DNA of 64,000 bases, taken from assembly GCA_021792615.1 (NCBI GenBank), contig JAJYUJ010000006.1:15700-79699 (forward strand), in the 5' to 3' direction. Position 1 is the stretch's first letter; each line of letters begins with the position of its first letter. The notes beneath the pieces are model-generated. The model made no database searches. It was not told the origin of the DNA and saw nothing but the letters and a program-made list of their open reading frames with translations. Source of the DNA: a bacterium (GTDB lineage: Bacteria; JAMCPX01). The position numbers were made by a program, and so were the translations under genes. Shown piece by piece: positions 35,460 to 62,592 of this stretch.

Positions 35460-35461
35460 GG

Positions 35462-38347: not shown

Positions 38348-38378
38348 AGTACCTCCTCTTTTTTTATACAAATTTTAA

Positions 38379-44400: not shown

Positions 44401-44532
44401 TGAATTCAGGTCAGGCAGCAATGTCCTGTCAAGCCTGTTGTAGGTGAGTACGCCGCCGATGGTCAGCAGTGTAACCACCAGCAGGATCAAAAGCCTGTGT
44501 GTCAATGAAAAATGTATGATCTTCTTAAACAT
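41416..44532 (-). CDS. RND-superfamily efflux permease (AcrB/CzcA-type), paralog 2
   Basis: 1038 aa with 12-TM RND topology and two large periplasmic loops, and conserved TM4-region acidic residues. Confidence 0.85.
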   Translation of the reverse strand: MFKKIIHFSLTHRLLILLVVTLLTIGGVLTYNRLDRTLLPDLNSPIFKIFITDPGLPSEYVEREITFPVEQSTRGLLGVEKVWSKSKIGLSVVIVKFVWGTNYFQALELLSQRISALAPFLPPEIRPPIISNAADRMSEIIQYYLTGDENPKALRAIAEYDIKYQLEMIPGIYDITNIGGEVAQYQILVNMDRLKSYGIPIDKVVRAVRDNNVIFTGGYLIKGPVAYSIRGNGLIKNFRNISHIVVATRANVPVYLDTIADIRIGHHIRQGNAMVDGRPAVLGTVVKQYGLNAMPIMKAVSDKLEIIRKSLPGGVTLHTYNDQSTLIDAAITNLRDAIIIGTIAVIIIIFLIMADISTTLVIAIIIPTAIIITFIFMKLFNESLNVMSLGGLVVGLGIMIDAAIIDTENIFRHLKMKPDDPLMATLEGSLEVRRPVIYSTVIIIVVFLPLYTLPGFTGAIFKDFSFTVVASIIIGFVLSLTLTPVLAYMLLKPKAGAGLKPAPANLQEKEGLVDRNLKRIYKPALTFSLKHPFYIIGFMLVSLVLVIGLSRFITTGFLPSIDEGAILVKIHMPPGTALAETTKRAMAISGILRHAPDVEDVIAHMGRPENAPKDEGIRKSGIFLKLVPWSKRKYTIAQIDDWIRIHVPSTKDVAIIITTPLTERLQEALSGIAVGGSLAIKIFGNNQHVLDENGARLYAMLSKIRGIQDLYIEQTKSAPGIAIDINRAKLGIYGVTPQQVGGDIQTALAGRVATIYRQGIRQYEVYVRAMPQFRDSLKSISNLLIDAGSGKKIPLSYVANVRYQAAPFIVRRENMERVLQLSCNIAGRSTGTVINDIKRTIKRLNLPAGYSVALGGEYRTQSDMVKRILLIMGIIAALIFIILYVAFDSFAIAGLVLLFIPFSLIGGVLALIITHTSLNISSIIGFLAHFGLSVQKAILLVEYIIYNKAAGMDDIESARHAGVTRMRPVLMTAMSASVAVLPLALGIGTGAEIDKPMAIVLIGGLITSTIFTLIALPGIYVLIDKYLSRGQTNRQKVG

Positions 44533-44555
44533 AGTATCTCACATTTCTCGTGGTT

Positions 44556-44629
44556 GTCATTGTGAGCGAAGCGAAGCAATCTTCCTCTCTACGAGTAGAT
44601 TGCTTCGTCATTTTATTCCTCGCAATGAC
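44556..44629. repeat. nested-palindrome intergenic repeat (GTCATTGTGAGCGAAGCGAAGCAATC ... GATTGCTTCG...CTCGCAATGAC) between the two RND genes
   Basis: The outer arms GTCATTGTGAG / CTCGCAATGAC and the inner arms GAAGCAATC / GATTGCTTC are reverse complements. It encodes the spurious peptide CHCERSEAI in ORF 44444-44665. A related arm, GTCATTGCGA...GAAGCAATCTC, appears at 54424-54458. Confidence 0.8.
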
Positions 44630-44633
44630 CCTT

Positions 44634-47600
44634 TCATTTTGTTGTCCTTTTCTGATTACGCATAAACAAATAATACATCACCGGCAGAACGATAAGAAGC
44701 AGGAATATCGACAGCGAAAATCCGCCGATAATCGCTATGGCGAGGGGCTTGTGCATCTGTGCTCCTGCCCCAAGGCCCAGTGCAAGCGGCATTAAGGCGA
44801 GTATTGCCGCAAGTGCCGTCATCATTATAGGACGTATCCTCAGGCTGCCGGCCTTGATGACAGCCTCTTTTAAAGGAAGACCGCTCTGTAAAGCATCCTG
44901 AATGTAATGTACAACGAATATGCCGTTTTCAGCCACAATGCCGACGATCATAATCATGCCCATAAGGGATGAGATATTGAGAGGGGTCTTCGTCAAATAT
45001 AAGAGACCGAGCACACCGAAAAATGACGGCAGGATAACACTGTAGATGATAATCGGCACAGCGAGCGATTCGAACTCAAGGATCATAATGGTAAATACCA
45101 GAGCAACGGCCATAAGCAAAACCATGAGCAGGCCCTTGAATGATTCCTGCTGGTTCCGGTAAACACCGCCATAGCTGATGCTCGTACCCGGCGGCAAGGT
45201 AAGTTTCTTCACCAATTCAGCCTTGACATCACGCATGACGCTTCCCAGGTCCCTTCCGCTTATCCTGCCGGTAACCGCCAGCATCCGCCGCAGATTTTCC
45301 CGGTCGATCTCCGCCTCGCCTCCGATCACCTGAATAGTGGCAATAGACTTCAGAGGGACGACGAGCCCGCTGGGCGTAACGATCTGCATGGATGCAAGCT
45401 TCTTTATGGTATTCGTTTCGGATGCAGGCATCAGCACCCTTATATTGATGACCTTTTCCCCCTCCCGCACGCTGGTTGCTACCGAACCCCACAATGCGGT
45501 GGTAACATAATCCGATACATACTGCGGCGTAACACCGACAAGCCCCGCCTTCAGATAATCGACATTGACGTTTATTGCAGGACCACTGATCGTAATGCCG
45601 TTGAACACATCGACAACGCCCTTTATCTTCGTGATAATAGCCGCTATTTTATTTGCTATGGTATCGAGAACACCGGTATTGTCGGAAAATATTTTTATAT
45701 CGATGGGCATAGGAGAGCCGGTCATGTCCCCGATCAAGTCCTGCATGATCTGTCCAAAATCTACATACACCTTGCCGGGTTCTGCCTGGTAGACCTTCTG
45801 CCTCAGTTCATTGATTACCTGCTCGATGGATTTATTCCTGTGATTTCTCAGACGTATCAGGAAGTCGCCCGTGTTCGGCTCGGTTATGAAAAACCCGAGC
45901 TGGGTGCCTGTCCTGCGTGAAAACGACTTGACCTCTCTGATGCTGAGGATGATCTTTTCTATCTTTTTTAGAATCCGGTTCGTTTCCTCAAGCGTTGTCC
46001 CGGGCGGCGTAAAATAATCCATGACAAATGCTCCCTCATCCATTGCCGGCATGAACCCTGTCCCTATATGCCGCTCCAGCATCCACGCTCCCGCAACCAG
46101 CACGATAATGGCCAGCACAACATACAAAGGTTTGCGAATAATCTTATGCATTGCAGTCTCATAACTGCCGGTCAATGCTTTCATGACCTTCCCTTCTTTT
46201 GCCTCTTTTTCCGTATCCTTGAGAAATATCGTAGCAAGTACGGGAGTCAGGGTAATCGAGACAATCATGGAGACGGTCAGCGCAGATGCCATGGTCAGGG
46301 CAAGAGCCTTAAAAAATGCACCTGTTACACCGCCGAGAAATGCGAGCGGGAAGAAAACGACGATCGTACTCAGGCTTGAACCGACGATAGCAGGCAGTAT
46401 CTCTTTCACACCGGTTTCGACCGCACGTTTCTTCGACCCATGCGCATGAAAATGCCTGATAATATTTTCCAGCACAACGATAGAATCGTCGATGATAAGC
46501 CCGATGGATGCAGCCATGCCTCCCAGGGTCATAAGGTTCAGGGTCTGGCCAAAGAGCTTCATCAAAACGACCGTTATAATGAGCGTAATAGGCAGCGTGA
46601 TGGCGGTAATAAACATGATCCGCACATTTCTCAGGAACAGAAACATGATGATAATGGCGATAAGCACACCAAACAGTATCGCGTCACGGACACTCCCGTA
46701 GGACTGCTCGATCAGGCTGGACTGATTATACCACGTCGATATATGCAGCGACGGGGGCAATTGAGACTTGAGCTCTTTAAGCTTGTTCTTGAGCTCTTTT
46801 GCTATTGCTATGGTATTCGCACCCGGCTGGCGCAGGACGTTCATTAAAACGGCATTATGGCCATTACTGGTTATGCGGATGTATTGCTTTTTCACCGATG
46901 TTTCTACCTTTGCCACATCCCGCACGTAGATAGGCACGCCCTTTTTATTCGCTATCAGGGTATCTTTCATTGCCGTCGTCGACGTGAAAAGTCCTGTCGG
47001 CTGAACCATGTAGAGCTCATAATCCTTGCCGATGTAACCCGAGGATGAAATGATATTCGTTTCCTTCAACCCGCGGATCACATCATCGAGCGTAAGGTGG
47101 TATGCAACAAGCCTCTGCGGATTTACGACGACGTGGTATTCCTTGATCTTCCCTCCCTGCACCACGACCTGAGAAACACCCTTTAACCTGCCGAGTATGG
47201 GTCTGAGTGTATAATAACCGATATCCCGTAACTGGACCATGTTGAGTGTATCCGAGGTCAGGCTGAGCCCTATAATAGGGAACTGACTCGGCCGCATCCA
47301 GTTTACTGTGACCGATGCGGTTTGCGGTAATTTGGATCGGATCTGGTTTATGGCGTTCTGGGTCAACTGAAGAGACTTGAACATATCCGTACCCCAGACG
47401 AAGTTTACGAAGATCTGCATGGAACCGCGGCTTGTTGCAGACCGCACGTCCGTTACGCCCGGGACAGAGTAAACCGCCTCTTCGATCGGCTTTGTCACCT
47501 CTATCATCATCTTTTCGATGGGCATGTCCCCGTTGTCCGCAAGAATGACAAGTCTTGGAAAGGTGATCTCCGGAAAGATCGCGACCGGCATGGTATTGAG

Positions 47601-47684
47601 CAAAATAATACCGATTGCCGCCAATACGACGGAGAGGAAGATTATTCCCTTTCTATGCGTCTCAAAGAATTTAGAAATGTCCAT
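44634..47684 (-). CDS. RND-superfamily efflux permease, paralog 1
   Basis: The start is taken at MDISKFF (47684). 12-TM RND architecture. It is only distantly similar to the second RND gene. Confidence 0.85.
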   Translation of the reverse strand: MDISKFFETHRKGIIFLSVVLAAIGIILLNTMPVAIFPEITFPRLVILADNGDMPIEKMMIEVTKPIEEAVYSVPGVTDVRSATSRGSMQIFVNFVWGTDMFKSLQLTQNAINQIRSKLPQTASVTVNWMRPSQFPIIGLSLTSDTLNMVQLRDIGYYTLRPILGRLKGVSQVVVQGGKIKEYHVVVNPQRLVAYHLTLDDVIRGLKETNIISSSGYIGKDYELYMVQPTGLFTSTTAMKDTLIANKKGVPIYVRDVAKVETSVKKQYIRITSNGHNAVLMNVLRQPGANTIAIAKELKNKLKELKSQLPPSLHISTWYNQSSLIEQSYGSVRDAILFGVLIAIIIMFLFLRNVRIMFITAITLPITLIITVVLMKLFGQTLNLMTLGGMAASIGLIIDDSIVVLENIIRHFHAHGSKKRAVETGVKEILPAIVGSSLSTIVVFFPLAFLGGVTGAFFKALALTMASALTVSMIVSITLTPVLATIFLKDTEKEAKEGKVMKALTGSYETAMHKIIRKPLYVVLAIIVLVAGAWMLERHIGTGFMPAMDEGAFVMDYFTPPGTTLEETNRILKKIEKIILSIREVKSFSRRTGTQLGFFITEPNTGDFLIRLRNHRNKSIEQVINELRQKVYQAEPGKVYVDFGQIMQDLIGDMTGSPMPIDIKIFSDNTGVLDTIANKIAAIITKIKGVVDVFNGITISGPAINVNVDYLKAGLVGVTPQYVSDYVTTALWGSVATSVREGEKVINIRVLMPASETNTIKKLASMQIVTPSGLVVPLKSIATIQVIGGEAEIDRENLRRMLAVTGRISGRDLGSVMRDVKAELVKKLTLPPGTSISYGGVYRNQQESFKGLLMVLLMAVALVFTIMILEFESLAVPIIIYSVILPSFFGVLGLLYLTKTPLNISSLMGMIMIVGIVAENGIFVVHYIQDALQSGLPLKEAVIKAGSLRIRPIMMTALAAILALMPLALGLGAGAQMHKPLAIAIIGGFSLSIFLLLIVLPVMYYLFMRNQKRTTK

Positions 47685-47881
47685 CGCTCTTGACGCTCTC
47701 ATTCCCGAACTTCGGCGTTATCCCCCTTACATTAGTGGGAGTAAGGGAGTTACTTTTTGCAGCTGTTATCAACCTACTCCGGGAATTCATAACGCCCCCT
47801 GCCCCTCTTTTCTTAAGTGGGGTGACGCTGAAGAATCCACCGTATATATCAATCCGTGTCCTCTCCATAGGGCGCTGCCCG

Positions 47882-48949
47882 TTATTTCGGCTTGTTCATG
47901 ATGGTATCCGTTACCACCTTTACTGCTGTTCCGCCTGCCAATGCGTAATTTCCCTGGGTGATGACAAGCTGTCCCTGACTCAGTCCGCTGAGGACTTCGA
48001 CCTTGCCGTCTTCTTCATAACCAGTCGTAACGCTAACTTCCCGTGCGATAAGATCCTGTCCGACGACCATAACGTATTCCTTCCCTGTGTCCGGATCAAA
48101 GAGGATAGCGTCTTTCGGTACAATAAGCGTGTTTTTATGGGTATTGCTGATAATATCTACAACAGCGAACATGCCGTCCTTTATCTCCTGGTCTTTGTTG
48201 GGAAAACTTACATTGAGCGCTACAGTCTGGGTTTCCTGGGACACGGTGGGGTTGATCGTTACAATCCTGCCGGTGAACACGTCATTCGGAAAAGATAAAA
48301 AATGGATAAGCACGGTATCGCCGATCTTGACCTGCTCAAGATACAGGGAAGGCAGGTCCACATGCAGATAGGTGCTCGATAGATCTTCCACCGCTACAAT
48401 GGGTGCATTTGCCTGAACGAGGGCATTGCTGCTGACATACCGCCTGCTCACATACCCGTTAAATGGTGAAGAGAGCGATAGTATGCCGAGTCTTAAAAAA
48501 TACTGTTTTTTTGCATTGGGTACAGCCGCACTGCCCCGGATAGCCGCTTCAGCTTCAATAGGCCTCAACCGTGCAACCACACTGCCCCTCCTGACAAAAT
48601 CTCCTTCTTTGACCAGCAGCTCCGTAACGACGCCCTCTACAGGGGAGTTGATCTCCACCTTCTTTAAAACATCCACCCTTCCCGTTGCCTGAATAAGGTG
48701 ATTGACGTTCCCGCGTACTACCCGGGCAGCCTTGACCTCGACCTGCGGGGCCTGCTCCGCGACCTGCGGTTTTGAAGAACAGGAAGCAAGGAGGAGTGAG
48801 GCAAGCAGGAATATAAACGCTGAAGAACATTGCCGGACAGGTCTGACAAGCCGGACACGTCCGACCTGTCCAATTGAGCCTGACAATGTTCTTTCTTCCG
48901 ACTTCAGTCCTCCAACTCTCTGTATATTTTTATCTCCCATATATTTCAC
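47882..48949 (-). CDS. RND efflux periplasmic adaptor (membrane fusion protein, HlyD family), lipoprotein
   Basis: Lipobox LLLASCSS. It carries biotinyl-lipoyl-like and beta-barrel MFP domains (VTELLVKEGDFVRRGSVVARL). Its start overlaps the TolC-like gene end. Confidence 0.8.
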   Translation of the reverse strand: MKYMGDKNIQRVGGLKSEERTLSGSIGQVGRVRLVRPVRQCSSAFIFLLASLLLASCSSKPQVAEQAPQVEVKAARVVRGNVNHLIQATGRVDVLKKVEINSPVEGVVTELLVKEGDFVRRGSVVARLRPIEAEAAIRGSAAVPNAKKQYFLRLGILSLSSPFNGYVSRRYVSSNALVQANAPIVAVEDLSSTYLHVDLPSLYLEQVKIGDTVLIHFLSFPNDVFTGRIVTINPTVSQETQTVALNVSFPNKDQEIKDGMFAVVDIISNTHKNTLIVPKDAILFDPDTGKEYVMVVGQDLIAREVSVTTGYEEDGKVEVLSGLSQGQLVITQGNYALAGGTAVKVVTDTIMNKPK

Positions 48950-50225
48950 CTCTCAAAAACTGTAGTTCGTAAAATGCCTTGTAAAAATCAGCCTGGGCAG
49001 TTGCCATATCCATCTGGGTAGTCGTCATGAGCTGCCTGTCCAGCAGGACCTCGTAACTGCTTATCCGGCCTCCGCCGGTGTACCGTGCCTCGGAATACTC
49101 GAAATTTTGTTTGGACAGCTTTATGTCCTTCTGATAAAGGTTTATGCGTTCAACAGCGCTTGCCAGATTTTTTAAGGCATTGCGATAGGAAAGCTCCAGC
49201 TGGTTGACAAGCAATTGTTCGTTAAACTGCACCTTTTCGAGCCGCATTCTGGCTGCTTCCACCCCGTAGGAAACAGCGCCCCACTCGAAAACCGGCAGGT
49301 TAAGCATGGCAAGATAAGAATAGCCGCGGTATTGGCCATAGGCCATGGGCTGCGGCTCAGCCAGCCATCCGGCGTCAGCCTCGATACTCAAGGTGGGCAG
49401 GTGCTTCGCCCTCTGTGCGCTGACATTATATTTCTGAGACCGTTCTTCATACCGTACGGCTTGTAACGCGGGATTCTTGCTGAATATCTGTTCGTTAATT
49501 TCAGAAGAAGCAGATACGGTGAACGGTACCGGTTCGAGCGCCAATACGGTTTGAGGTGTAATGGGAATACCGGTCAAGGACGACAGGGTGTTGAGCTGTG
49601 AAAGCAGTTTTATATCGAATGATTTGAGCCTTGCCCTTGTATTGTCAAGCTCTATCTGCGTCCTGAGCACATCATTCTCCGTCACCAGCCCCGTGGAAAG
49701 AAGCCGCTTTGTCAACGACAGATAATCCCCGAGACTGTTGATATTCTCCTGAAGGATCTTGATCTCTTCTCCATAGGTTACGGCATCTACAAATATATTC
49801 TTGACCGTATAGGCAAGACCGCTCTCCATGGCCTTTTGTTCGTATCGCGCAGATTCAAACGACATCTTCAGTTGTTTTGCCGAAAGCCAGCGTGAAGGGC
49901 TGAACAGGTCTACCTGAGCTACTGCCTGAAGTGAGGCAATGCCTCCGTTCGTTACGGCGGGGTCATATCCATAGGCCCTGCCATAACTTGAGGACAGGCT
50001 TACCGACGGCAGCAGTAACGCACGGGATTGTTTGTATTCGCTGCTCAACAAACCGGTATTGGCACGCGCATAGCCGGACACGGGATAATTGCGGATCGCC
50101 TTCTCGATGCACACCTTCAAGGTAACCGGCGAATCAGCATAACCCGGGCCGGGCGCGGTAACAAAGAGTATTATATTCGTTACCATGAATATCAGGACCA
50201 ACAGCCCCTGCCTTCTTATTTTCAT
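48930..50225 (-). CDS. TolC-family outer-membrane efflux protein
   Basis: Two-repeat TolC architecture with a signal peptide. The start is chosen at MKIRRQG (50225); the ORF-track start is at 50258. Confidence 0.8.
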   Translation of the reverse strand: MKIRRQGLLVLIFMVTNIILFVTAPGPGYADSPVTLKVCIEKAIRNYPVSGYARANTGLLSSEYKQSRALLLPSVSLSSSYGRAYGYDPAVTNGGIASLQAVAQVDLFSPSRWLSAKQLKMSFESARYEQKAMESGLAYTVKNIFVDAVTYGEEIKILQENINSLGDYLSLTKRLLSTGLVTENDVLRTQIELDNTRARLKSFDIKLLSQLNTLSSLTGIPITPQTVLALEPVPFTVSASSEINEQIFSKNPALQAVRYEERSQKYNVSAQRAKHLPTLSIEADAGWLAEPQPMAYGQYRGYSYLAMLNLPVFEWGAVSYGVEAARMRLEKVQFNEQLLVNQLELSYRNALKNLASAVERINLYQKDIKLSKQNFEYSEARYTGGGRISSYEVLLDRQLMTTTQMDMATAQADFYKAFYELQFLRGEIYGR

Positions 50226-50437
50226 ATCCTCTCGTAAATATTTTATTCTTGTATGCATATATTTAGTAAAATTATACCGTAATCATTAAATTTTCAATAA
50301 AATAAGATTAATTTTTTTTAATTTTCCCCTTTTCCCGCTCTGATCCTTTATCCATTTCCCATCACTACTTCCCCCTGCTCTCCTTGTTCCTTGATTATAT
50401 CTGGAATTGTGCTATTGAAGGAAAGCTATATCAGTGC

Positions 50438-53086
50438 ATGAAGGAGGCACAATACGTGAGATGTTTTAAATGTCTTACAGAAGTACCGACAGGAACAGAA
50501 GTCTGTCCGAATTGCGGTCAAGTTCTTATACCAAAGGCAGCAAAGAAGAACAAAGAGACAAAAGACCCTGCCGGTACCCAGATTAAACAAAAAGAGTATC
50601 AGATAGGCGACACGATAAAGGACCGCTATGAGGTCAGGGGGGAACTGGGCAAAAAAGGTACGGGATTCACGTATAAGGTTCGGGATAAAGAAAAGAAAAA
50701 GACCTTCGTGCTCAAACAGATACATTCTTCACTGATAACTTCGGATGAATCAAAGGCGCGTTTTTTTGATATTATAAAAGAAGTAATCAAGATGAACCTG
50801 CATGAGGTCGTCTCAATCCATGATTACGGGGAAGACAATGGAGCAATCTATTTTGTTTCCGAATACATAGAAGGACTCACGCTGAGAAAGCTGCTGGACG
50901 TCAGAAAAGAGATGAAACAGTTTTTCAAAGGCGAAGAACTCGAATCCATACTCACGCAGATATGCAAGGCACTTATTACAGCCCATAATCACGGGGTTAT
51001 ACACGGAGATCTGAAACCCGAGAATATATTCATATTGCCCAGCGGTCTTAAGATTACGGAATTCGGTATAACCGGCTCTTTCTCACCGCTCGATTTTACA
51101 TCGATCCAGCAGGACATGGGTGACGCTTACAAGTATATAGCACCCGAAATCGTTATCGGCGGTAACCTGTCAAAATCAAGCGATATCTATTCACTCGGCG
51201 CTATAGTTTATGAGATGCTTACCGGTGTAATACCCGGAAGTGTCGTAAATCCGCTGAACACTTACAACAGTGAACTTCCTCCGGCTGCTAACGATATCGT
51301 CCTCAAAGCACTACGTCAGGATCCTGAACAGAGAACTCAATACGTATTTGAATTTTACAAAAATTTACTCGAAAGTCTCGATCAAAAAGCAGGTATTTTC
51401 GAAGAAAAGCCGTGGATAACGAAACAAACGGCAGAAACAGAACAGACCGGAAAACTACAAACTGAGGTAGACGAAGAACTACTCATGTACGTGGAGACCG
51501 GCAGGACAGCCCCGGCACCTGCATCTGACAAACAAGGACCTGTTTCAAAAGAAGAGAAACCTGCACCACCGGCACCGGAAAAAAATGAAGTACCGCAACC
51601 TGAACCGCCAAAACCGTCAACCTCCGCACAACCGGAGCAGGAACAACAACCGGAAAAAGAAAAATCAGCGGAAGAAATCAAAGAATCAACCCGGGAACCG
51701 GGTCCGCAGGCCGCAGAAGCAACAAAACAGATTCCTCCTGCTGAACATCAACACGGTAATGAGGAACGTGTCATCGCAAAACCCGCAGAGCAACCCGTAA
51801 AAGAAGAAATTTCGGGAGAAAAGATAGAAGCAGAAAAAATACAACCCGCGCCTGAACCTGCTGTCACAGAGCAGCCAAAACAAGAAATGTCAAAACAACA
51901 GGAAGAAATCTCCAGGACAATTCCGGAGGTAATTCCGGAAAAGATTGAACAAACAAAGCCTGAACCGGAACAAACCGGGATAGATGATATTGCCAAACAT
52001 CTGGGGATAATCACCGAAGAGCTCCAGGGCACAAAACCAATTAAACCAAAACCAGCGGGACCTGTTCAGGAAAAGCCTCCTGTTTCTCAAAGTCAGGTTG
52101 ACAAGTCTGCTCCTCAGAGGGTCGAACCTGCTCCGGCCAGGCAGATACCGCCAAAATCAGCACCGGTGGCAGCTACCTTGGAGACGAAGAAAAAACCGGC
52201 AGTACTGTTGATTGCAGGTACCATCGTACTCGCTGCCGCGGCATTAATAGTTACCGGATGGTTTTTGTTAAAATCTCCTTCAAAAGAGGTTTCCGGTGTT
52301 ACACCTCCAAAAACGAATAAAGCAATCGAGACGAATACGAAACCAGTCACGGCTGCAGAACATGCGGTTACCGGAACTGTGGTACAAGCCAAACCTCCTG
52401 TCGAAAGGCAGGAAGTGAAAAAACAGGAGATAAAAAAACCGGTTGAACGGCCGCGCCGGGAAAAAAAGATTGCAGCGGCACCAAAACCATTACCCCCGAA
52501 ATGTCCTGCCGATATGGCATATATACCCTCGGGCAGCTTCATCATGGGTAGCAGCCCTTCGGACCCGCTGAGGGACTTTTCCGAAAAACCTGACGTACGG
52601 ACATACGTCCGGTCATTCTGCATCGATAAATACGAGTATCCTGACCAGGAAGGCGTTATTCCGCAAACGAATGTAAGCTTCTATAAGGCAGAAAGGTTGT
52701 GCAGGGCTGAAGGCAAACAATTGTGTTCAGAGGATGAGTGGGAAAAGGCATGCAAAGGTCCCTCTTCATTAAAGTATCCTTACGGTAATGTATGGAATTC
52801 CGCGAAATGTGACACGCAGAACAAGGATGGAACAAACAGATCCATAGTGCCGTCAGGCACCTACAGAGCATGCGTAAGCGGCTATGGAGTATATGATATG
52901 AGCGGAAATGTGATGGAATGGACCGACAACATTTTTTCGCCACAGGATACAACTGATAAGGTCGTCAAAGGCGGATCTTTCACGAAACCCGATTGGGCAA
53001 CACGATGCGCATACCGGTACAATATGCTTCCGACCTCAACGAGCAATGAGGTTGGCTTCAGATGCTGCAAACCGCCGGAAAGATAA
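50438..53086 (+). CDS. multidomain membrane protein: Zn-ribbon + Ser/Thr-kinase-like domain (atypical HGD/EFG motifs) + P/E/K-rich linker + TM helix + extracytoplasmic FGE-sulfatase (SUMF1-like) domain
   Basis: The Zn-ribbon is CFKC...CPNC. The kinase subdomains are present (GELGKKGTG, VLK, HGDLKPEN, ITEFG, APE) but with R->G in HRD and D->E in DFG. A ~300-aa low-complexity linker (PEPPKPSTSAQPEQEQQPEKEK...) follows, then a TM helix (VLLIAGTIVLAAAALIVTGWFLL). The C-terminal FGE domain has GNVMEWT and the paired Cys signature TRCAYRY...GFRCC. The start is either ATG 50438 or GTG 50456 after AAGGAGG. Confidence 0.8.
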   Translation: MKEAQYVRCFKCLTEVPTGTEVCPNCGQVLIPKAAKKNKETKDPAGTQIKQKEYQIGDTIKDRYEVRGELGKKGTGFTYKVRDKEKKKTFVLKQIHSSLITSDESKARFFDIIKEVIKMNLHEVVSIHDYGEDNGAIYFVSEYIEGLTLRKLLDVRKEMKQFFKGEELESILTQICKALITAHNHGVIHGDLKPENIFILPSGLKITEFGITGSFSPLDFTSIQQDMGDAYKYIAPEIVIGGNLSKSSDIYSLGAIVYEMLTGVIPGSVVNPLNTYNSELPPAANDIVLKALRQDPEQRTQYVFEFYKNLLESLDQKAGIFEEKPWITKQTAETEQTGKLQTEVDEELLMYVETGRTAPAPASDKQGPVSKEEKPAPPAPEKNEVPQPEPPKPSTSAQPEQEQQPEKEKSAEEIKESTREPGPQAAEATKQIPPAEHQHGNEERVIAKPAEQPVKEEISGEKIEAEKIQPAPEPAVTEQPKQEMSKQQEEISRTIPEVIPEKIEQTKPEPEQTGIDDIAKHLGIITEELQGTKPIKPKPAGPVQEKPPVSQSQVDKSAPQRVEPAPARQIPPKSAPVAATLETKKKPAVLLIAGTIVLAAAALIVTGWFLLKSPSKEVSGVTPPKTNKAIETNTKPVTAAEHAVTGTVVQAKPPVERQEVKKQEIKKPVERPRREKKIAAAPKPLPPKCPADMAYIPSGSFIMGSSPSDPLRDFSEKPDVRTYVRSFCIDKYEYPDQEGVIPQTNVSFYKAERLCRAEGKQLCSEDEWEKACKGPSSLKYPYGNVWNSAKCDTQNKDGTNRSIVPSGTYRACVSGYGVYDMSGNVMEWTDNIFSPQDTTDKVVKGGSFTKPDWATRCAYRYNMLPTSTSNEVGFRCCKPPER

Positions 53087-53098
53087 GAACGTTATTGT

Positions 53099-54352
53099 AT
53101 GAACACCTCTGCCTCGTATATTTTGATCGCGTATGTGTTTGTAGCGATATGCGGCTATTGGCTTGAACACCTGAAACTTTCATACCTGAAAAGATACGGT
53201 ACTGTTGTTCCGCCTGAATTTGCAGGCAGTATCGATCAAAAGCTGCTGGACAGCTCAAGCAGGTATACCATCGAATCGACAAAGTTCGGCATCGCTTCAT
53301 CCCTGTTCAGCAATGTTCTGCTTATAGCGTTTTTCTTTACAGGCATTCTCGGCACCTTTACTGCATGGATCGCTTCCCTCCATCTGAACTTTATCGTGGC
53401 TGGTATTGTCTTTTTTTTACTGCTTGTTTACGCAGATACCTTCCTGACAATCCCTTTCAGCGTGTATCAGACATTTAAGATAGAAAAAAAATTCGGCTTC
53501 AATACGATGACGGCAAAATTATGGCTCACGGATTTCGTAAAATCCCTTCTCGTATCGACGGTGCTTCTCTCTTTAATCACAGCAGCCGGTCTCTGGCTTA
53601 TTGAAAAAAGCCCCTTGCATTGGTGGCTGTGGGTATGGCTTTTCTTTCTCATATTCAGTATCTTCATGATGTATATCTCTCCCTATGTGATAGAGCCGTT
53701 GTTTAACAAGTTTCGTCCTGTTGAAGATGAAAACCTCAAAGCGGGCATTCAGGAACTGACGGAAAAGGTCGGCGTTAAGATCAGCAAGATCCTCAAAATG
53801 GACGCATCGAAAAGGACAAAGCATACCAACGCCTATTTCACCGGCATCGGAAGGGTCAAAAGGGTCGTCCTCTTTGATACACTCCTGAACTCGATGAGCA
53901 CGGAGGAGATCATCGTGGTCCTGGGACACGAGCTCGGACATTGGAAAAAGAAGCATGTCTTAAAGCAATTGGTCCTTATGGAGGCGATTTCTCTGGCAGT
54001 GCTCTACCTGTCCTTTCGGTTGATGCAGGGCAGCCTTTTGCTCAATTGGTTCGGTATCTCCACAAACAGCCAGTTTGCAAAGATAGCGATCCTTATGTTT
54101 CTTGGTACGATTGCGGCATTCCCGTTTACGCCGGCGTTTAACCTCTTCTCCAGAAGGCATGAAAGGGAAGCAGACACCTTCGCCTGTGAACTCACCGACA
54201 ATCCGGACGCCATGATCAGCGCACTGGTAAAGCTTTCAAAGGACAACCTCTCAAACCTCCACCCCCACCCGGTATACAGCGCCTTCTACTATTCCCACCC
54301 GCCGGTAACCGAGAGAATACAACACATCAAGGAGTGGAAAAAATCCCGGTAG
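53099..54352 (+). CDS. M48-family Zn-metalloprotease, Ste24/CAAX-prenyl-protease-like (multi-TM)
   Basis: 417 aa with 6-7 N-terminal TM helices, then HELGHW (HEXXH) and the downstream E of the zincin motif. It lies 12 nt after the kinase-FGE gene. Confidence 0.8.
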   Translation: MNTSASYILIAYVFVAICGYWLEHLKLSYLKRYGTVVPPEFAGSIDQKLLDSSSRYTIESTKFGIASSLFSNVLLIAFFFTGILGTFTAWIASLHLNFIVAGIVFFLLLVYADTFLTIPFSVYQTFKIEKKFGFNTMTAKLWLTDFVKSLLVSTVLLSLITAAGLWLIEKSPLHWWLWVWLFFLIFSIFMMYISPYVIEPLFNKFRPVEDENLKAGIQELTEKVGVKISKILKMDASKRTKHTNAYFTGIGRVKRVVLFDTLLNSMSTEEIIVVLGHELGHWKKKHVLKQLVLMEAISLAVLYLSFRLMQGSLLLNWFGISTNSQFAKIAILMFLGTIAAFPFTPAFNLFSRRHEREADTFACELTDNPDAMISALVKLSKDNLSNLHPHPVYSAFYYSHPPVTERIQHIKEWKKSR

Positions 54353-54500: not shown

Positions 54501-54633
54501 AACCCAGTTCTTTCTTATTCTCTATGCTCAATCTTTGAAAGCCTTGTTTCGTGATCATCAAGCTTAGCGGAGGGTTTTTTATCCCCGATTCATTCTCTTG
54601 CCTTTTCCGCATGCATCATGCTATCTGCAAATC

Positions 54634-55959
54634 ATGCGTTCCAATGCCCTTGTATACGTAATCTCCATCTTAATGGCTCTCTTCATCGGCTGGTCAATGT
54701 TCAACCCCCATTTCAGCGGTTCGATGGAATACCTGCTCATGGTTGTATTCTTCGTCATGCTCGCATGGATTATCCTTGTAATCTTCGTCCCTGACCGCAG
54801 GGAAAGAAACTATATTTTCTCCATATTCCTATTGGCTCTTTTTCTAAGAATACTCGTCTCTTTTCTTATTCATACCTTACTTCCGCTTGGCTATTTTGCA
54901 CCGGATGAGCCGGGTACGATCTTGAACGGAAGAATAACTGCAGAATATTGGAGAGGATCTACCACAATACAGGGCGTAAAAGGGAGTGTATTTGATATTG
55001 CCGGAATCGTTTTTTATATCTTCGGTTACAACCCAAATATCTTATTTTTACTTGCGAACTTCCTCGGTGCAATGACAGTTCTGAATGCCTATTTTATAAC
55101 AAAGCGCCTGTTCAATGAGCAGTCAGCACGTTATAGTGCATTGGCAGTAACCATTTTGCCATCACTTATACTCTGGTCTTCCATGCCTTTAAAGGATGTA
55201 TACTCACAGTTCTTAATTACATCCATCATGCACATGACTTTAAGAGTCAAAGAACGCTTCAGACTCAATAATGTTGCAATTATTATAGCCTTGATAGCAT
55301 TGATTGGGTTTGTACGGGCATATCTTATGTTCATCGTCTTAGTTGCTATTGCAGGGACATTTATCCCTGTACGCAAAGAAACCTTTTTAAGGAATACAAT
55401 TATTATTACTATTTTTGCTATGGCATTTGTTGTGTTTTTTTCATCATACTCGTCAAAACAAGCCTCTCTCTTTGGGAATACCCCGGAAACCACATTCCAA
55501 ACACTGCAACAAACCAGACAAGGCTTTTATTCGGGTGGATCTAAAATGCTCGGACATATCAATGTTGCAAGCCCTGTCAATGCTTTATTGTATTTACCTC
55601 TCCTTTTAGCTGCTTTTTTTCTTGCTCCCTTCCCATGGGACGTAACCGGAAGTATATTGCATAACCTTGCAACTGCAGAAAGCATCGTATGGTATTATCT
55701 TTTCTATTACGCAATAAAGGCCATTATTCGATCATTTAAAGAAGGCAATTTCGATACATTGCCTGTGCTCGTCATGGTTGGCGTTTTATCTATTGCTTAT
55801 GCGCTTGCAATCAGTAATATGGGCGCGGCGTATCGTTTCCGTGGACAGGTTTCTGTCCTGCTGCTGGTCTTCACAGGCTATGGACTTTATTTAAGGAAGC
55901 AGAAACACCTAATAAAACATGCCCTGCCTGATGAACCAAACTCCCCTTCTTCCCCCTGA
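54634..55959 (+). CDS. polytopic membrane protein, putative GT-C-type glycosyltransferase or glycan polymerase (family unassigned), tandem paralog 1
   Basis: About 441 aa with ~11 TM helices and an acidic periplasmic-loop motif YFAPDEPGT after TM3. It is a paralog of the next gene. The start is taken at MRSNALV. Confidence 0.55.
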   Translation: MRSNALVYVISILMALFIGWSMFNPHFSGSMEYLLMVVFFVMLAWIILVIFVPDRRERNYIFSIFLLALFLRILVSFLIHTLLPLGYFAPDEPGTILNGRITAEYWRGSTTIQGVKGSVFDIAGIVFYIFGYNPNILFLLANFLGAMTVLNAYFITKRLFNEQSARYSALAVTILPSLILWSSMPLKDVYSQFLITSIMHMTLRVKERFRLNNVAIIIALIALIGFVRAYLMFIVLVAIAGTFIPVRKETFLRNTIIITIFAMAFVVFFSSYSSKQASLFGNTPETTFQTLQQTRQGFYSGGSKMLGHINVASPVNALLYLPLLLAAFFLAPFPWDVTGSILHNLATAESIVWYYLFYYAIKAIIRSFKEGNFDTLPVLVMVGVLSIAYALAISNMGAAYRFRGQVSVLLLVFTGYGLYLRKQKHLIKHALPDEPNSPSSP

Positions 55960-56135
55960 TATGGGGGATTTAAGGGGGTTGAGAGCCCGGACTGAAGAGT
56001 CACCACTGTTCTGTCATTATGATGCTCAGTCAAAGAATCTGCCTTTTCTCTCCGGAATTATAATCTCCGGCGACATTCCTCGCTCCTCCATTCCTTCTTC
56101 TTGCCTTTTCTGCAAGCAACATGCTATCTGAAAAC

Positions 56136-57482
56136 ATGCGTTCGAACCTCGTTATAAACATAATCTTTATTACAAGTGCCATGGTACTTGGATGGTTTCT
56201 GTTCAATCCGAGTTACAGCGATCCTATAGAATACCTTCTTATGCTTGTATTTTTTGTATTGATTGCATGGATTATATTGGTAACTTTTGTCCCTGATCAA
56301 AAAGAACGGGGCTACCTTATATCTATTTTCTTAATTGCGCTGGCATTAAGGATGCTTGTATCCCTGCTTGTCCATGCACTGCTTCCCCCGGGCTATTTTG
56401 CACCGGATGAACCCGGCACACTCATGAATGGAAGGATGATTGCTGAATCATGGTCAGGCAATGCCATGCCGTATAACTTTCATGGAGGTATATATGCTAT
56501 TGCCGGGGCTGTGTTTTATATCTTCGGCTATAAACCAAATATCTTATTTTTACTTGCGAACTTCCTCGGTGCATTGACTGTCTTAAATGCCTATTTTATA
56601 ACAAAGCGCCTGTTCAATGCGCAGTCGGCACGCTACACCGCTATGGTTGTAACCATATTACCGTCGCTTATTTTATGGTCGTCCATGCCATTAAAAGACA
56701 TTTATTCGCAGTTTGCTATTACATCCATCATACACCTGACTCTGAGGATTAAGGAGCACTTCAGAATAAGCAATCTTATGCTTATTTTATTCTTGATTGC
56801 ATTTGTTGGATTCATTAGAGAATATCTTGTGATTATCGTTTTAATGGCTATTGCAGCTACCTTTATTCCTGTACGCAAAGAAACCTTTATCCGGAATGCA
56901 ATTGTTATAGCGGTTTTTGCCTTGTCATTTGCATTGTTCTTTTCATCGTATGAGGCGAAACAGGTGCCCAATCATGGAGAAAAATCAGGAGGTACATTTC
57001 AGACACTGCAACAAACCAGACAGGGGTTTTATCAGGGGGGCTCAAAGATACTTGGACACATAAATATATCCAATCCAATCAATGCACTTCTGTATTCGCC
57101 TTTGCTCTTAGCAGTTTTTTTTCTTGCGCCCTTCCCGTGGCAGATCTCGGGCAGTATATTGCATAACCTCGCAACAGCAGAAAGTCTCGTATGGTATTAT
57201 TTTTTTTATTACGCAATAAAAGCTATTATACGATCATTTAAAGAAGGAAAATTTGACGTGATGCCTGTGCTGGTTATGATCGGAGTATTATCAGTTGCTT
57301 ACGCACTTGCAATATCGAATATCGGTGCGGCATACCGTTTCAGGGCACAGGTTTCAGTGCTTTTTTTGGTCTTTACAGGCTATGGACTTTATTTAAGGAA
57401 GCAGGAACATCTAATAAAATATGCCCTGCCTGATGGACCAAAAGTTTCTTCCGCTTATCCGACAACCCCAAATAAGATGTAA
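56136..57482 (+). CDS. polytopic membrane protein, tandem paralog 2 of 54634-55959
   Basis: About 70% identical to paralog 1 over its full length (YFAPDEPGTLMNGR, FLLANFLGA.TVLNAYFITKRLFN.QSARY..., NLATAES.VWYY.FYYAIKAIIRSFKEG.FD). Confidence 0.55.
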   Translation: MRSNLVINIIFITSAMVLGWFLFNPSYSDPIEYLLMLVFFVLIAWIILVTFVPDQKERGYLISIFLIALALRMLVSLLVHALLPPGYFAPDEPGTLMNGRMIAESWSGNAMPYNFHGGIYAIAGAVFYIFGYKPNILFLLANFLGALTVLNAYFITKRLFNAQSARYTAMVVTILPSLILWSSMPLKDIYSQFAITSIIHLTLRIKEHFRISNLMLILFLIAFVGFIREYLVIIVLMAIAATFIPVRKETFIRNAIVIAVFALSFALFFSSYEAKQVPNHGEKSGGTFQTLQQTRQGFYQGGSKILGHINISNPINALLYSPLLLAVFFLAPFPWQISGSILHNLATAESLVWYYFFYYAIKAIIRSFKEGKFDVMPVLVMIGVLSVAYALAISNIGAAYRFRAQVSVLFLVFTGYGLYLRKQEHLIKYALPDGPKVSSAYPTTPNKM

Positions 57483-57670: not shown

Positions 57671-58181
57671 GTAATAGCATATAAACCCCGTTAGAAATGT
57701 TAGAATAATACAGATATTTTAATGAACGGGTGTTCGCCGCAATCCACGCTATTTATAGCGTGGTAAAGGCGAACTATTCGATTGATATATTCCATACCGA
57801 CGAAGAATTCATGCCGTTTACGGCGTGGTTCTTCAATTTTAAATCTATTGTTGTACAAATTATCGTCTGCTGAGTTTCTAACGGGGTAAACATACAGAGG
57901 ACTAAAAGCTCGTTCCTATAAGGAAACTTATAGATATCAGGTGGATCGCGGGATTGAGCGAATAAGGAAACTTCCTTATTGCATTTTTCAGGTTAAACAA
58001 TTTTAGATTTCCCCGCGCTACATTTAATGCTTCTTCACTGGGATCTATACAGTACAAAGTTCCAATGCGGGGAGCTACAAACTTTGCCTACCTAACCGTT
58101 TGAAAATAATGGTGTTTTTGAAATCACCATCATCGCAAGTCTTTATAGTACTTTGTTCTCTAACGGGGTTTACAGAATACC
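57671..58181. repeat. ORF-free hairpin-rich segment bounded by inverted copies of a TCTAACGGGGTTT motif (MITE-like or structured-RNA locus)
   Basis: The motif copies are at 57671-57697 (inverted), 57875-57897 and 58156-58181. Internal perfect hairpins include GTTCGCC..CCACGCTAT-TT-ATAGCGTGG..GGCGAAC (about 57725-57775), GCCGTTTACGGC and AATAAGGAAACTTCCTTATT. No ORF of at least 60 aa lies on either strand. Confidence 0.45.
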
Positions 58182-58190
58182 GCCTCTCTA

Positions 58191-59699
58191 TTACTTAAAA
58201 GAAACCTGATAAGCTAAGCCTATTTTTCGAATATCAAAAGTTTTCTGCAGATCAGGAATAAAATAGTATTGAGCATTATTATCGGCAAGAAACACTGTCC
58301 TTTTGTCCTTCAACTCTGCTGAAATATAACGAGTTAGAGCACTACCGCCATCCTTGCCCATAAAAACATATTGATCCTCATCCACGATAGTTACATCTTT
58401 TCTTAAGCCGTAAGCATTCTGATAATACCGTAAAACCTCTTCCGGGGTAAAATCCGAGATTAAAATCGCATTTTCTGGCAATGCTGCAAATATTTCGTTT
58501 GAATATTTCATAGGACCATAATTTCTATTTTTGTTTGGAACAAGGAAATATTCAACATTATTCCTAAAAGGCAGTGTCCGTGCATGAACAACCATCATCT
58601 TAGGATGACTCAATAAATATGCTGAAACGGTATTATAAAAAGCTATTGGAGTAACAAATAATAGGACCAACAATAAAACAGAGACAGTATTAGTTTTGGT
58701 AAATGAAAAATGTTTATTTAACCATTTTATCCCGTATCCAATAATAATAGAAAAAATCATAAAACTTGGAACCAAAAGGTTAAAAGCACGCTGTAGCATA
58801 TAAACGGATGCGAAGAAAACATCTAAAATAAATACTATAGCTAATGAGTAAAAGAATATTTTTTCTGTTTTAAGACTTTCGTATATTCCCATAACACCTA
58901 TTATGAGACCCCATACAGGGAATTGATAGAACAGGTAAGCCGGATATAAGATTAGTTGTTTAACAAAATGCTGAAATGACATAAAATAGGCTTTTATGCC
59001 CAAATTTATTTCCAAAATTATACTTTCAAATGGATGAGTATTGAATACATGTGATGCTGCATATATTTTTAACAACGAAAGAGGCAAAACAAAACCAAAA
59101 AGAATTCCAATAAATATTGCAGCTATTTTTCTATTGTTCAATATGATCTTTTTATCTATTGATAAAAAGAAATATAAATATGCCGGTAAAAATACCACTA
59201 ATAACATGTTTGCAAAAACACTGAGAGCGTACGACAGCGTAAATAAAAACAGATATAGCGGTTTATGATTCTCCTTATATTTGATCATGATGAAAAGTAA
59301 TATTGCAAAAAAGAAATAGGTTAAAGAATAACTTTCATTTACGACAGACATAAACCAAAACATTTGTGATACAGCAAGTGAAATTACAGCCGCTAATGCG
59401 GCAATCTTAGAACCTAATATCTTCTCGCTATCAAGGTAGAATATACCAAGAGTTAAAGACCCCCAAAATGCTGACATGAGATTTTGCTTATAAGCAATAT
59501 CCCTAATCGGCAATAGATTAAAAAGTAATCCAAGCAGTGTATGAAGGTTGTGTCCACCAACAAAATCGAAAGTGAATTTTTTATTTATAACATAATTTAC
59601 AAGCTTAGCACTATCTCCCCATGTTATGCCCGGAGATAATGTGTATAAATAAAGGCCAAAGCTGAAAATTGTTACCAATATCCAGAAATATTTACGCAT
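58191..59699 (-). CDS. DUF2723/TMEM260-like GT-C-fold protein (putative protein O-glycosyl/mannosyltransferase family)
   Basis: The start is taken at MRKYFWILV (59699), which makes a TAATG overlap with the upstream GT4 stop. The N-terminal signature YLYTLSPGITWGDSAKL fits DUF2723. There are ~10 TM helices and a soluble C-terminal domain. Confidence 0.55.
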   Translation of the reverse strand: MRKYFWILVTIFSFGLYLYTLSPGITWGDSAKLVNYVINKKFTFDFVGGHNLHTLLGLLFNLLPIRDIAYKQNLMSAFWGSLTLGIFYLDSEKILGSKIAALAAVISLAVSQMFWFMSVVNESYSLTYFFFAILLFIMIKYKENHKPLYLFLFTLSYALSVFANMLLVVFLPAYLYFFLSIDKKIILNNRKIAAIFIGILFGFVLPLSLLKIYAASHVFNTHPFESIILEINLGIKAYFMSFQHFVKQLILYPAYLFYQFPVWGLIIGVMGIYESLKTEKIFFYSLAIVFILDVFFASVYMLQRAFNLLVPSFMIFSIIIGYGIKWLNKHFSFTKTNTVSVLLLVLLFVTPIAFYNTVSAYLLSHPKMMVVHARTLPFRNNVEYFLVPNKNRNYGPMKYSNEIFAALPENAILISDFTPEEVLRYYQNAYGLRKDVTIVDEDQYVFMGKDGGSALTRYISAELKDKRTVFLADNNAQYYFIPDLQKTFDIRKIGLAYQVSFK

Positions 59700-60793
59700 T
59701 ACAATGATCCGTCTTCTCCACCGACTTTCCTTAAAACCTCCACATATTTGGGTGCCCATACTTTGACAGAATATCGTTCTTCTACTGTTTTCCGCCCAGC
59801 CTTTCCAAGACTCTGTCTTAACTCAGGATTTTCTATCAGTAACGTTAATTTCTTAATCCATTCTTCTTCATCTTTAGCCAGAAATCCATTTACCCCATCC
59901 TGTATGATCTCTGTATTTACACCAACCGGAGACGCCACGCATGGTATCTCCATAGCCATATACTGCAATGCCTTCAATCCGCACTTGCCCTTTGCCCACT
60001 CGTCATCAGGTAATGGCATAATGCCTATATCAAATTCAGCCATCTCTGCCAATTCCGTATTCAATGACCACTTAATGCAATTTGTTTGAATACCAGAAGC
60101 ATTGTATGTTCCACCTATAACATTCAGTCTGTAATGTTGAGGCAGGTGCTTCCAAATATTATCAAGCAATTTAAGATACATAGCTGTAGATCCGCTGCCT
60201 ATCCACCCAATCACAAGATTTTGTTGCTGTTTTTGTACCTGTGCAACAGGTTTGTAATAATCCGTATCAACCACAGTGGGTATAACGGAAACATTATTAT
60301 TGAATAACCTTGAATGCCGGGCAAGATATTCATTGCCGGCAATTATATGCGTGAAAAGCTTCATGATCTTGTCAAACTTCTTCTCGGATTTTACAATTTT
60401 TTTAATAAAAGGGCTTATACCTGTCTGGCTTTTAACCGGTATCCATATTGCATCGTCAAAATCAAATATGGTTGGTATACCTTTTCTTGAGATGTATCTT
60501 TCTATCCATGGTCTACCGAACAGCATCGCTTCTCTATAAACCACTACAACATCATAAGATTGGATATTGGATAAACTCCGCATCTGCCGTATTATACCAT
60601 TTATGAGGATGCTGATCTTTGTAAACAGTGAAGAGGTTGATTCATTATATATCCGCATATATTCCCCACCATTAAGAAAAGTACTTATTGTATATTCGAT
60701 GCCTGCCTTCTTAAAATATGGCAGATATTGATATATACGGAACCTTGGACCGGGAGATTCAATTGGATGCGGTAAAAGTATTAAGATCTTCAT
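59699..60793 (-). CDS. GT4-family glycosyltransferase (GT-B fold)
   Basis: 364 aa. The C-terminal domain carries the EX7E-like region (EFDIGIMPL...GLKALQYMAMEIPCVASPVGVNTEIIQDGVNGFL). Confidence 0.8.
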   Translation of the reverse strand: MKILILLPHPIESPGPRFRIYQYLPYFKKAGIEYTISTFLNGGEYMRIYNESTSSLFTKISILINGIIRQMRSLSNIQSYDVVVVYREAMLFGRPWIERYISRKGIPTIFDFDDAIWIPVKSQTGISPFIKKIVKSEKKFDKIMKLFTHIIAGNEYLARHSRLFNNNVSVIPTVVDTDYYKPVAQVQKQQQNLVIGWIGSGSTAMYLKLLDNIWKHLPQHYRLNVIGGTYNASGIQTNCIKWSLNTELAEMAEFDIGIMPLPDDEWAKGKCGLKALQYMAMEIPCVASPVGVNTEIIQDGVNGFLAKDEEEWIKKLTLLIENPELRQSLGKAGRKTVEERYSVKVWAPKYVEVLRKVGGEDGSL

Positions 60794-60811
60794 TGCTTTT
60801 CTTTATTCGTT

Positions 60812-61681: not shown

Positions 61682-61729
61682 ATCCTCTATCCTCTTTTAA
61701 TTTTCTTATTGTATTTTATATAATGCAAG

Positions 61730-62560: not shown

Positions 62561-62592
62561 GTATAACTCTTTGAGACTATTTTAATTGGAAT

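Follow-up and report, generated by a model that had tools for sequence, protein, structure and literature searches.

An FGE-fold ectodomain without the catalytic cysteine pair in a predicted bacterial receptor pseudokinase

Background

Within a stretch of 64,000 nucleotides (nt) of the bacterial contig JAJYUJ010000006.1 (assembly GCA_021792615.1, positions 15,700 to 79,699 of the forward strand; from here: the window) lies a gene whose product joins a zinc ribbon and a Hanks-type kinase-like domain to a C-terminal domain with the fold of formylglycine-generating enzymes (FGEs). We report that this C-terminal domain does not possess the active-site cysteine pair of FGEs and that the kinase-like domain carries degenerate motifs. 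We consider it fairly probable that the protein is a receptor (pseudo)kinase, in which a non-catalytic, disulfide-rich and lectin-like ectodomain would serve as the sensor and a degenerate kinase module would signal by clustering or scaffolding. An earlier reading of the same DNA, made by a model from its letters (from here: the original prediction), had described an apparently catalytic FGE domain that reports to, or is controlled by, the kinase module, and had suggested that the gene may form a functional unit with a Ste24-like protease gene directly downstream.

Fusions of kinase and FGE-like domains were catalogued in 2005 in chlamydial kinases (PMC1262709) and in 2007 in cyanobacteria (PMC2176072), and they represent one architecture of the ‘Proteo1’ family in the 2025 atlas of bacterial serine/threonine kinases (bSTKs). 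None of these surveys gave a function to the C-terminal domain. The statement of the original prediction that such fusions are annotated yet uncharacterised agrees with these sources, which list them by genomics only. Hence, the architecture is already known and the window protein adds a member. Public names for such proteins include ‘bifunctional serine/threonine-protein kinase/formylglycine-generating enzyme’. Residues are numbered throughout according to the version of 882 amino acids (aa).

Results

The ectodomain lacks the catalytic cysteine pair of FGEs

The ectodomain has the FGE/C-type-lectin-like fold (PF03781). The Pfam FGE-sulfatase profile matches residues 739–877 with an E-value of 7e-30, over profile positions 89–254 only. 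In human FGE the active-site pair consists of Cys336 and Cys341, and the structural disulfides are Cys346-Cys235 and Cys365-Cys218 (PMC4505483). When HMMER aligns the domain to human FGE (1Y1E), the segment GGSFT---KPDWATRCA of the window protein stands opposite GGSYMCHRSYCYRYRCA; the Cys341 position is occupied by Asp and Cys336 falls into the 3-residue deletion. In an alignment to the C336S variant, a Lys stands opposite the Cys336 position. Counted back from GFRC in the HMMER alignment, the Cys of ‘RCA’ corresponds to human Cys346 and that of ‘GFRC’ to Cys365, and the cysteines of ‘ERLC’ and ‘EKAC’ correspond to Cys218 and Cys235. These four residues of the window protein (C755, C772, C857 and C876) align to structural-disulfide cysteines of human FGE, and all of them are invariant. 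The original prediction had taken the cysteines of RCA...GFRCC for both retained signature cysteines; they align with the structural Cys346 and Cys365 and not with Cys336 and Cys341, and the alignment check that had been set beforehand as the test against the claim places neither of them at a catalytic site. Because the cited cysteines are the structural ones, and Cys336 and Cys341 are without a Cys counterpart, the description of the FGE domain as apparently catalytic is unsupported.

The same pattern is seen across the relatives. Between GGS and RCA, Cys is absent from all 27 close relatives that span the segment. A profile search with the ectodomain against 1.84 billion cluster representatives gave 123,785 matches at E ≤ 1e-3 and 1,777 at E ≤ 1e-30; domain counts for the subfamily refer to 132 single-domain sequences in and around the best 150 of these 1,777 representatives. 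The active-site segment is free of Cys in 131 of the 132 domains, and the PDW Asp opposite Cys341 is D in 92. Ten cysteines are invariant in 132/132 domains, and so is the vicinal pair C876-C877 (132/132). Since an even number of ten invariant cysteines in an extracytoplasmic domain is accounted for most simply by five disulfides, the two structural disulfides of the fold would probably be joined by three more, made from the six further invariant cysteines.

With ~194 aa, the ectodomain is ~80 residues shorter than true FGEs, and the deletions take in the active-site loop. It contains no His at all (residues 689–882), which excludes a metal (iron) site of the EgtB/OvsA type. Not one NCBIfam model reaches its cutoff; the best on the ectodomain are GldK/PorK, EgtB, SenA and PvdO, all far below. 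Its structural neighbours include the FGE-fold enzymes EgtB, OvsA, SenA, PvdO, CalU17 and ToxD, and also PorK and TvpA as non-enzymatic precedents of the fold. As judged from these comparisons, the ectodomain is predicted to be without formylglycine-making capacity, the copper-binding cysteine pair having been lost.

The ectodomain was also considered as the target of a diversity-generating retroelement (DGR). This was rejected: no direct repeat touches the region 52.5–53.1 kb, no reverse transcriptase is found among the open reading frames (ORFs) of the window, and orthologues have a conserved C-terminus.

The kinase-like domain is degenerate

Pfam Pkinase matches residues 64–301 with an E-value of 3e-36, and StkP and PknB are the best PDB sequence matches of this domain. 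In comparison with StkP, the VAIK-Lys (K93), the HxD Asp (D191), the catalytic-loop Lys and Asn (N196), the APE motif and the αF Asp are kept. The G-loop reads GKKGTG, with the second Gly of GxGxxG replaced by Lys and the motif thereby lost; the αC-Glu position is occupied by Ile, a call that depends on the alignment; the catalytic loop reads HGD instead of HRD, hence this is not an RD kinase; and DFG is changed to EFG, with the DFG Asp gone. Among 28 close relatives, only one keeps the αC-Glu and 12 have Glu in place of the DFG Asp, the latter exchange being found in 4/107 family representatives. Moreover, the HxD Asp is replaced by Asn (HGN) in the close orthologues P0005, P0010 and P0011.

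For the wider family, 107 kinase domains that are joined to ectodomains of this subfamily were compared with a control set of 84 kinases without the ectodomain, which were retrieved by the same query and aligned with the same model. The HRD-Asp position in the family holds D in 49, N in 25, A in 12 and G in 7 of the 107 sequences, compared to D in 84/84 controls. The αC-Glu is present in 28/107 family members but in 75/84 controls, and the HRD-Arg in 4/107 but 74/84, whereas the second G-loop Gly is found in 95/107 and 82/84, respectively. The DFG-Asp is present in 83/84 controls. More than half of the kinase-FGE family has lost the catalytic Asp, with the VAIK-Lys, the catalytic-loop Asn and the DFG-Asp kept. 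In total, the Lys/Asp/Asp triad is intact in 47/107 family members (44%) and in 83/84 controls. Because controls aligned with the same model keep these residues, the degeneracy appears specific to this lineage. Judged by the triad as used in the 2025 bSTK atlas, the window protein is a predicted pseudokinase, at best an atypical kinase. A description of this lineage as pseudokinase-rich was not found in the literature searched.

Domain layout and predicted topology

The order of domains given in the original prediction, from the zinc ribbon through the kinase-like domain, linker and transmembrane (TM) helix to the FGE fold, was recovered by Pfam and hydropathy (Table 1), and the hydropathy scan likewise agrees with its topology of a cytoplasmic Zn-ribbon/kinase-like module, one TM helix and an extracytoplasmic FGE fold. 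The Kyte-Doolittle scan returned one segment only at a value of at least 1.6 (~residues 586–611), directly after a KKK cluster; all 10 cysteines C-terminal of the TM helix fall within residues 689–882. A single-pass topology with the N-terminus inside and the C-terminus outside is predicted from these features.

Within the zinc ribbon, C23 and C26 are conserved at ≥90% in 28 relatives, and a CxxC...CxxC motif is present in 59/106 family kinases. The 265-aa linker between residues 321 and 585 is composed of E (16%), P (15%), K (11%) and A (11%) as leading residues and contains no Cys. It holds two motifs conserved in the close clade, EEKPWxTKQ..ETEQxGxLQTExDEELxMYxE and GxxDIAKHLExxTxEIQ, at ~51400–51560 and ~52040–52100 (residues ~322–375 and ~535–555), which may be docking or regulatory elements. 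The full-length AF2 model has a mean pLDDT of 41.5 and is too poor as proof; it shows the linker without secondary structure except for a helix at the second motif, and a further helix at the TM segment, thereby weakly backing a disordered linker and a TM helix.

Table 1. Positions of the receptor gene, its predicted domains and the downstream protease gene in the window.
Feature	Position	Strand	Basis
Receptor gene (Zn-ribbon / kinase-like / TM / FGE-like)	50438..53086	+	ORF, translation, Pfam
Zinc ribbon CFKC...CPNC (residues 9-26)	50462..50515	+	Sequence; weak Pfam DZR match
Hanks-type kinase-like domain (residues 64-301), degenerate motifs	50627..51340	+	Pfam, StkP/PknB alignment
E/P/K/A/Q-rich low-complexity linker, predicted cytoplasmic (residues 321-585)	51398..52192	+	Composition, alignments
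Predicted single TM helix (~residues 586-611), KKK cluster before it	52193..52270	+	Kyte-Doolittle
K/P/E-rich spacer of ~75 aa, predicted extracytoplasmic (residues 612-688)	52271..52501	+	Composition
Shortened FGE / C-type-lectin-fold domain (residues 689-882)	52502..53083	+	Ten invariant Cys, no His, no catalytic Cys pair
Intergenic spacer, 12 nt, no terminator-like site	53087..53098	+	Sequence, terminator scan
Ste24-type (M48A) membrane zinc metalloprotease gene, 417 aa	53099..54352	+	Pfam, phmmer, hydropathy

Gene model and start codon

The ORF 50384..53086 (+) includes ATG 50438, from which 882 aa are encoded. The sequence AAGGAGG at 50440–50446 lies 9 nt ahead of the in-frame GTG 50456, MRCFKC is the N-terminus of the orthologues, and 876-aa versions share the 90% cluster. 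In view of this spacing, the orthologue N-termini and the 876-aa cluster members, translation probably starts at GTG 50456 and yields 876 aa, not 882 aa. Of the original gene model, therefore, the ATG at 50438 does lie within the ORF, but GTG 50456 is the likelier start; that two genes exist, with 12 nt between the first and a Ste24-type M48 gene, was correct.

An identical protein is encoded on six public contigs, the longest of which comes from a metagenome-assembled genome labelled ‘Deltaproteobacteria bacterium’ at NCBI, and receptor orthologues are known at 53–71% identity, which together argue that the gene is real. Metagenome and genome scans contained, among the matches listed, no orthologue closer than ~50% identity.

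The absence of a sulfatase gene from the window, as stated in the original prediction, was confirmed: there is no Sulfatase Pfam match among its ~50 ORFs of at least 100 aa, and the motif [CS]xPxRxxxxTG was not found in the 64 kb. Rfam and tRNA scans of the whole window were empty.

A Ste24-type protease gene downstream

The protein encoded downstream matches Peptidase_M48_N (1.8e-51) and Peptidase_M48 (1.7e-41) in Pfam, and phmmer aligned it to yeast Ste24p (4IL3) with an E-value of 6e-62 over residues 28–409, including the motifs. It contains HELGH at residue 277, the distal Glu (HEREAD), YSHPP and ~7 hydrophobic segments; HELGH/HEIGH and HEREAD/HEYQAD align between the window protease and 4IL3. 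It is thus a multi-TM Ste24/M48 protease, as had been proposed, and it looks catalytically intact. With Ste24 / ZMPSTE24 (M48A CaaX protease) it shares a near full-length match, the HExxH motif, the distal Glu, YSHP and ~7 TM segments. To our knowledge, no prenylated CaaX substrate is known for bacterial Ste24 homologues and their role in bacteria is not established. The receptor was considered as a CaaX substrate of the protease and rejected: its C-terminus is GFRCCKPPER and those of relatives are RCCADPE, RCCASPL and RCCK, none of which has the form Cys-aaX.

The pairing with the receptor gene occurs in four lineages, namely the window, P0004, P0006 and P0007 (59–68% receptor identity), with gaps of 12, 11, −4 and 35 nt. 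These four loci differ upstream (RND pump or ABC transporter) and downstream (PMT_2-like, C1 peptidase or Mfd). The close clade is represented by seven lineages, and the next relatives P0014, P0015 and P0016 lack the pair. Among the matches listed there are 58 distinct kinase-FGE loci, 48 of them extending at least 1.3 kb further downstream, and tblastn detected no M48 gene in the other 51 distinct kinase-FGE loci. Clustering of stop-to-stop ORFs over the 58 listed loci gave only lineage-specific synteny blocks, with many spurious ORFs of high GC content, and no universal neighbour.

In the scan for promoters and terminators, sites were no more numerous than in shuffled sequence. A 12-nt spacer without a terminator-like site is consistent with co-transcription of receptor and protease, which is probable in this narrow clade. 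Regarding the suggested functional unit, adjacency is kept in four related lineages but is absent in P0014–P0016 and in the other listed kinase-FGE loci. The pair is at most a clade-specific operon outside the conserved core of the receptor family, and its adjacency could be explained by inherited synteny.

A Peptidase_C1 (papain-family) gene lies directly 3′ of the Ste24 gene in two relatives (L084, 10041–10781; L085, 10214–10960). In the window, a C1 peptidase gene is located 43 kb away, at 7564–8346 (+).

Distribution of the receptor family

Kinase fusions make up 106 of the best 150 representatives in the ectodomain search, and the FGE-like domain is situated at the extreme C-terminus in 131 of these 150. 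A hydrophobic segment between the kinase and the FGE-like domain is present in 105/105 family members. Related loci among the matches listed belong to Myxococcota, Bdellovibrionota, Nitrospirota, Planctomycetota and others.

Some of the top matches of the ectodomain profile have no kinase domain (P0138-P0147, P0196, P0199, P0228 and P0235). These bear 3 to 11 tandem FGE-like domains in proteins of up to 4448 aa, a repeat-type use of the module.

Other genes of the window

Two tandem paralogues with 78% nt identity follow the protease gene at 54598–55959 and 56121–57482 (+); each encodes a PMT_2-like multi-TM glycosyltransferase of 453 aa. A TMEM260-like/PMT_2 protein is encoded beyond this pair at 58191–59759 (−). 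The PMT_2-like glycosyltransferase was considered as a conserved partner of the receptor and rejected for lack of consistency: the window, L085 and L088 have such a gene close to the receptor, none was found in L087, and the neighbours of similar size in L084 and L090 show no relation to it. From 58000 to 64000, GC content drops from ~0.44–0.50 to 0.34–0.35, and the genes of this segment encode glycosyltransferases (GT1/GT4, GT25) and an FkbM-type methyltransferase; it looks like a horizontally acquired island for polysaccharide or lipopolysaccharide biosynthesis.

A resistance-nodulation-division (RND) efflux cluster occupies 41416–50258 (−) and is divergent from the receptor gene; besides a membrane-fusion protein and an outer-membrane factor, it encodes two AcrB-type pumps in tandem, of 1038 and 1022 aa. 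This cluster is also upstream of the receptor in L085 and L087, not in L084. A nitrogen-assimilation cluster at 33270–40101 (−) contains glutamine synthetase, two ammonium transporters and a GAF-domain sigma-54 activator; the ammonium transporter paralogues share 69–72% nt identity and have a class-I glutamine amidotransferase between them.

A radical SAM/SPASM protein encoded at 16030–17148 (−) reaches 480.8 bits with the model for the haem b synthase AhbD, at a cutoff of 500, and adjoins hemB (ALAD) at 17279–18262 (−). It was considered as an anaerobic sulfatase-maturing enzyme; this was rejected, as NCBIfam sides with AhbD and hemB is adjacent. The AhbD-like gene and hemB point to a siroheme-dependent, oxygen-independent haem pathway and hint at an anaerobic organism. 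At 5269–5442, an 87-nt tandem direct repeat is present in two copies of 70% identity within the DnaJ-domain ORF 4888–6036 (−).

Discussion

If the window protein acts as a receptor (pseudo)kinase, its outer domain, a lectin-like fold locked by disulfides, would bind a ligand or partner in the periplasm or cell envelope, and the Zn-ribbon together with the kinase-like module would signal by ligand-dependent clustering, dimerisation or scaffolding. Nucleotide binding would be possible, with efficient phosphotransfer not being the main route. On either side of the membrane the linkers are long and flexible, which argues for a clustering mode over rigid conformational coupling. A non-enzymatic, ligand-binding role has precedents in non-catalytic binders of the FGE fold, such as Tsi3, an immunity protein of type VI secretion systems (T6SS), and the FGS/DGR proteins, and further in PorK and TvpA.

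Several points weigh against this explanation. The retained VAIK-Lys, HxD Asp and Asn, together with the Glu of EFG as a possible metal ligand, might permit residual or atypical kinase activity. The αC-Glu call depends on the alignment, though the control alignment backs that column. Both the disulfide pairing and the location of the ectodomain outside the membrane are predictions, and the invariant vicinal CC with the PDW Asp could constitute an unrecognised active or metal site. Finally, the locus sets consist of the matches listed and are not an unbiased sample.

Instead of a pseudokinase, the protein could be a conventional, active Ser/Thr receptor kinase of the PknB type in which the FGE-like domain replaces the PASTA repeats as the sensor. 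We regard this as unlikely. The residues kept from VAIK-Lys to the αF Asp and the active kinases StkP and PknB as best PDB matches speak for it, but the DFG Asp has become Glu, the G-loop Gly Lys and the αC-Glu Ile, the domain is non-RD, three close orthologues have HGN, and no PP2C or FHA partner is encoded in the neighbourhood within the window. Moreover, because the triad is kept in 44% of the family compared to nearly all controls, phosphotransfer appears dispensable in this lineage.

Similarly doubtful is a two-gene signalling unit of receptor and Ste24 protease, in which ligand binding to the receptor would control the membrane protease or the protease would process the receptor, loosely resembling sensor-protease systems such as BlaR1. 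Adjacency in four lineages despite differing flanks, the missing terminator between the genes and a protease that keeps HExxH, the distal Glu and YSHP are in line with such a unit. However, the pair is missing in P0014, P0015 and P0016, no M48 match occurs in the other 51 distinct loci, shared descent alone could explain adjacency in four related genomes, and the receptor C-terminus RCCKPPER is not a CaaX box.

A bolder proposal, to which we assign a still lower probability, extends the receptor pseudokinase to the whole group: proteins consisting of kinase, TM helix and a deca-Cys FGE-like domain would form a large unrecognised family, with nucleotide-dependent scaffolding or dimerisation as in HER3 and a disulfide-locked, lectin-like sensor for an envelope or extracellular ligand. 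In the clade of the window, the output would then run via the co-transcribed Ste24 protease.

It is improbable that the ectodomain is an enzyme with another chemistry (PvdO-like, thiol-disulfide or metal-dependent) whose substrate lies in the envelope and which either is regulated by the kinase-like module or elicits a response from it. The enzymes EgtB, OvsA, SenA, PvdO, CalU17 and ToxD demonstrate that the FGE fold supports chemistry other than that of FGE, and the invariance of C876-C877 and the frequent PDW Asp (92/132) would fit a catalytic site. Yet the domain is devoid of His and of an EgtB-like DinB partner domain, its ten invariant extracytoplasmic cysteines are explained most simply by five disulfides, and it is ~80 residues shorter than the enzymes, with the active-site loop deleted. 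A working FGE that matures sulfatases or other CxPxR substrates and reports to, or is controlled by, the kinase is very improbable: the Pfam match, the fold and the many cysteines including those of RCA and GFRCC would suit it, but both catalytic cysteines are missing compared with human FGE and across the subfamily, the cited ones belong to structural disulfides, the 64-kb window holds no sulfatase, no NCBIfam model of FGE type comes near its cutoff, and the AhbD-like gene hints at an anaerobe, in which FGE chemistry, dependent on O2 and Cu, would not be expected.

The receptor pseudokinase proposed for the window can be compared with several known systems. ‘Proteo1’ kinases, chlamydial kinases of the Pkn1 type and cyanobacterial cbSTKII-DUF323 likewise begin with the kinase, continue with a TM segment and carry the FGE-sulfatase (DUF323/NirV-like) domain at the extreme C-terminus; the likeness to ‘Proteo1’ lies in this shared architecture. 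The bSTK surveys treat such kinases as canonical, whereas the family described here often loses the HRD-Asp and the αC-Glu and keeps the VAIK-Lys. It differs in this last respect also from the seven pseudokinase families of the atlas, in each of which at least some members have lost the VAIK-Lys. With the PASTA kinases PknB and StkP, the window protein has in common the layout of a cytoplasmic Hanks domain, a flexible linker, a TM segment and an outer ligand-binding domain, but its sensor domain is another one, its linkers are much longer and its motifs are degenerate; the NCBIfam model PknB_PASTA scores 170.8 bits at a cutoff of 450.

Regarding the ectodomain, SUMF1 and bacterial FGEs share with it the fold, Cys218/235/346/365 and the GN(V/A)xEW motif, whereas the window domain is without the copper-binding cysteine pair, has the loop deletion and carries Asp at the position of Cys341. 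A close system is pFGE / SUMF2 (PDB 1Y4J), the human non-catalytic paralogue of FGE. Close as well are the non-enzymatic binders with the FGE/C-type-lectin fold, namely Tsi3, PorK/GldK of the type IX secretion system (T9SS) and the DGR proteins TvpA/Mtd. In contrast to TvpA/Mtd, neither a pair of template and variable repeats nor any further sign of a DGR is present in the window, and the C-terminal region is strongly conserved instead of hypervariable; in contrast to Tsi3 and PorK/GldK, the window protein is without a lipoprotein signal and does not occur in a T6SS or T9SS context.

Conclusions

These results call for a correction of annotation, as names of the type ‘bifunctional ... formylglycine-generating enzyme’ imply a capacity for sulfatase maturation that the sequence cannot support. 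What had not been expected is that the attached kinase domains are degenerate in the manner of pseudokinases, a finding deduced from sequences. If true, it would be relevant to bacterial signalling, with no long-standing question answered by it. Should the degeneracy hold, bacteria would have a sizeable group of receptor pseudokinases that cross the membrane once and are equipped with a lectin-like sensor.

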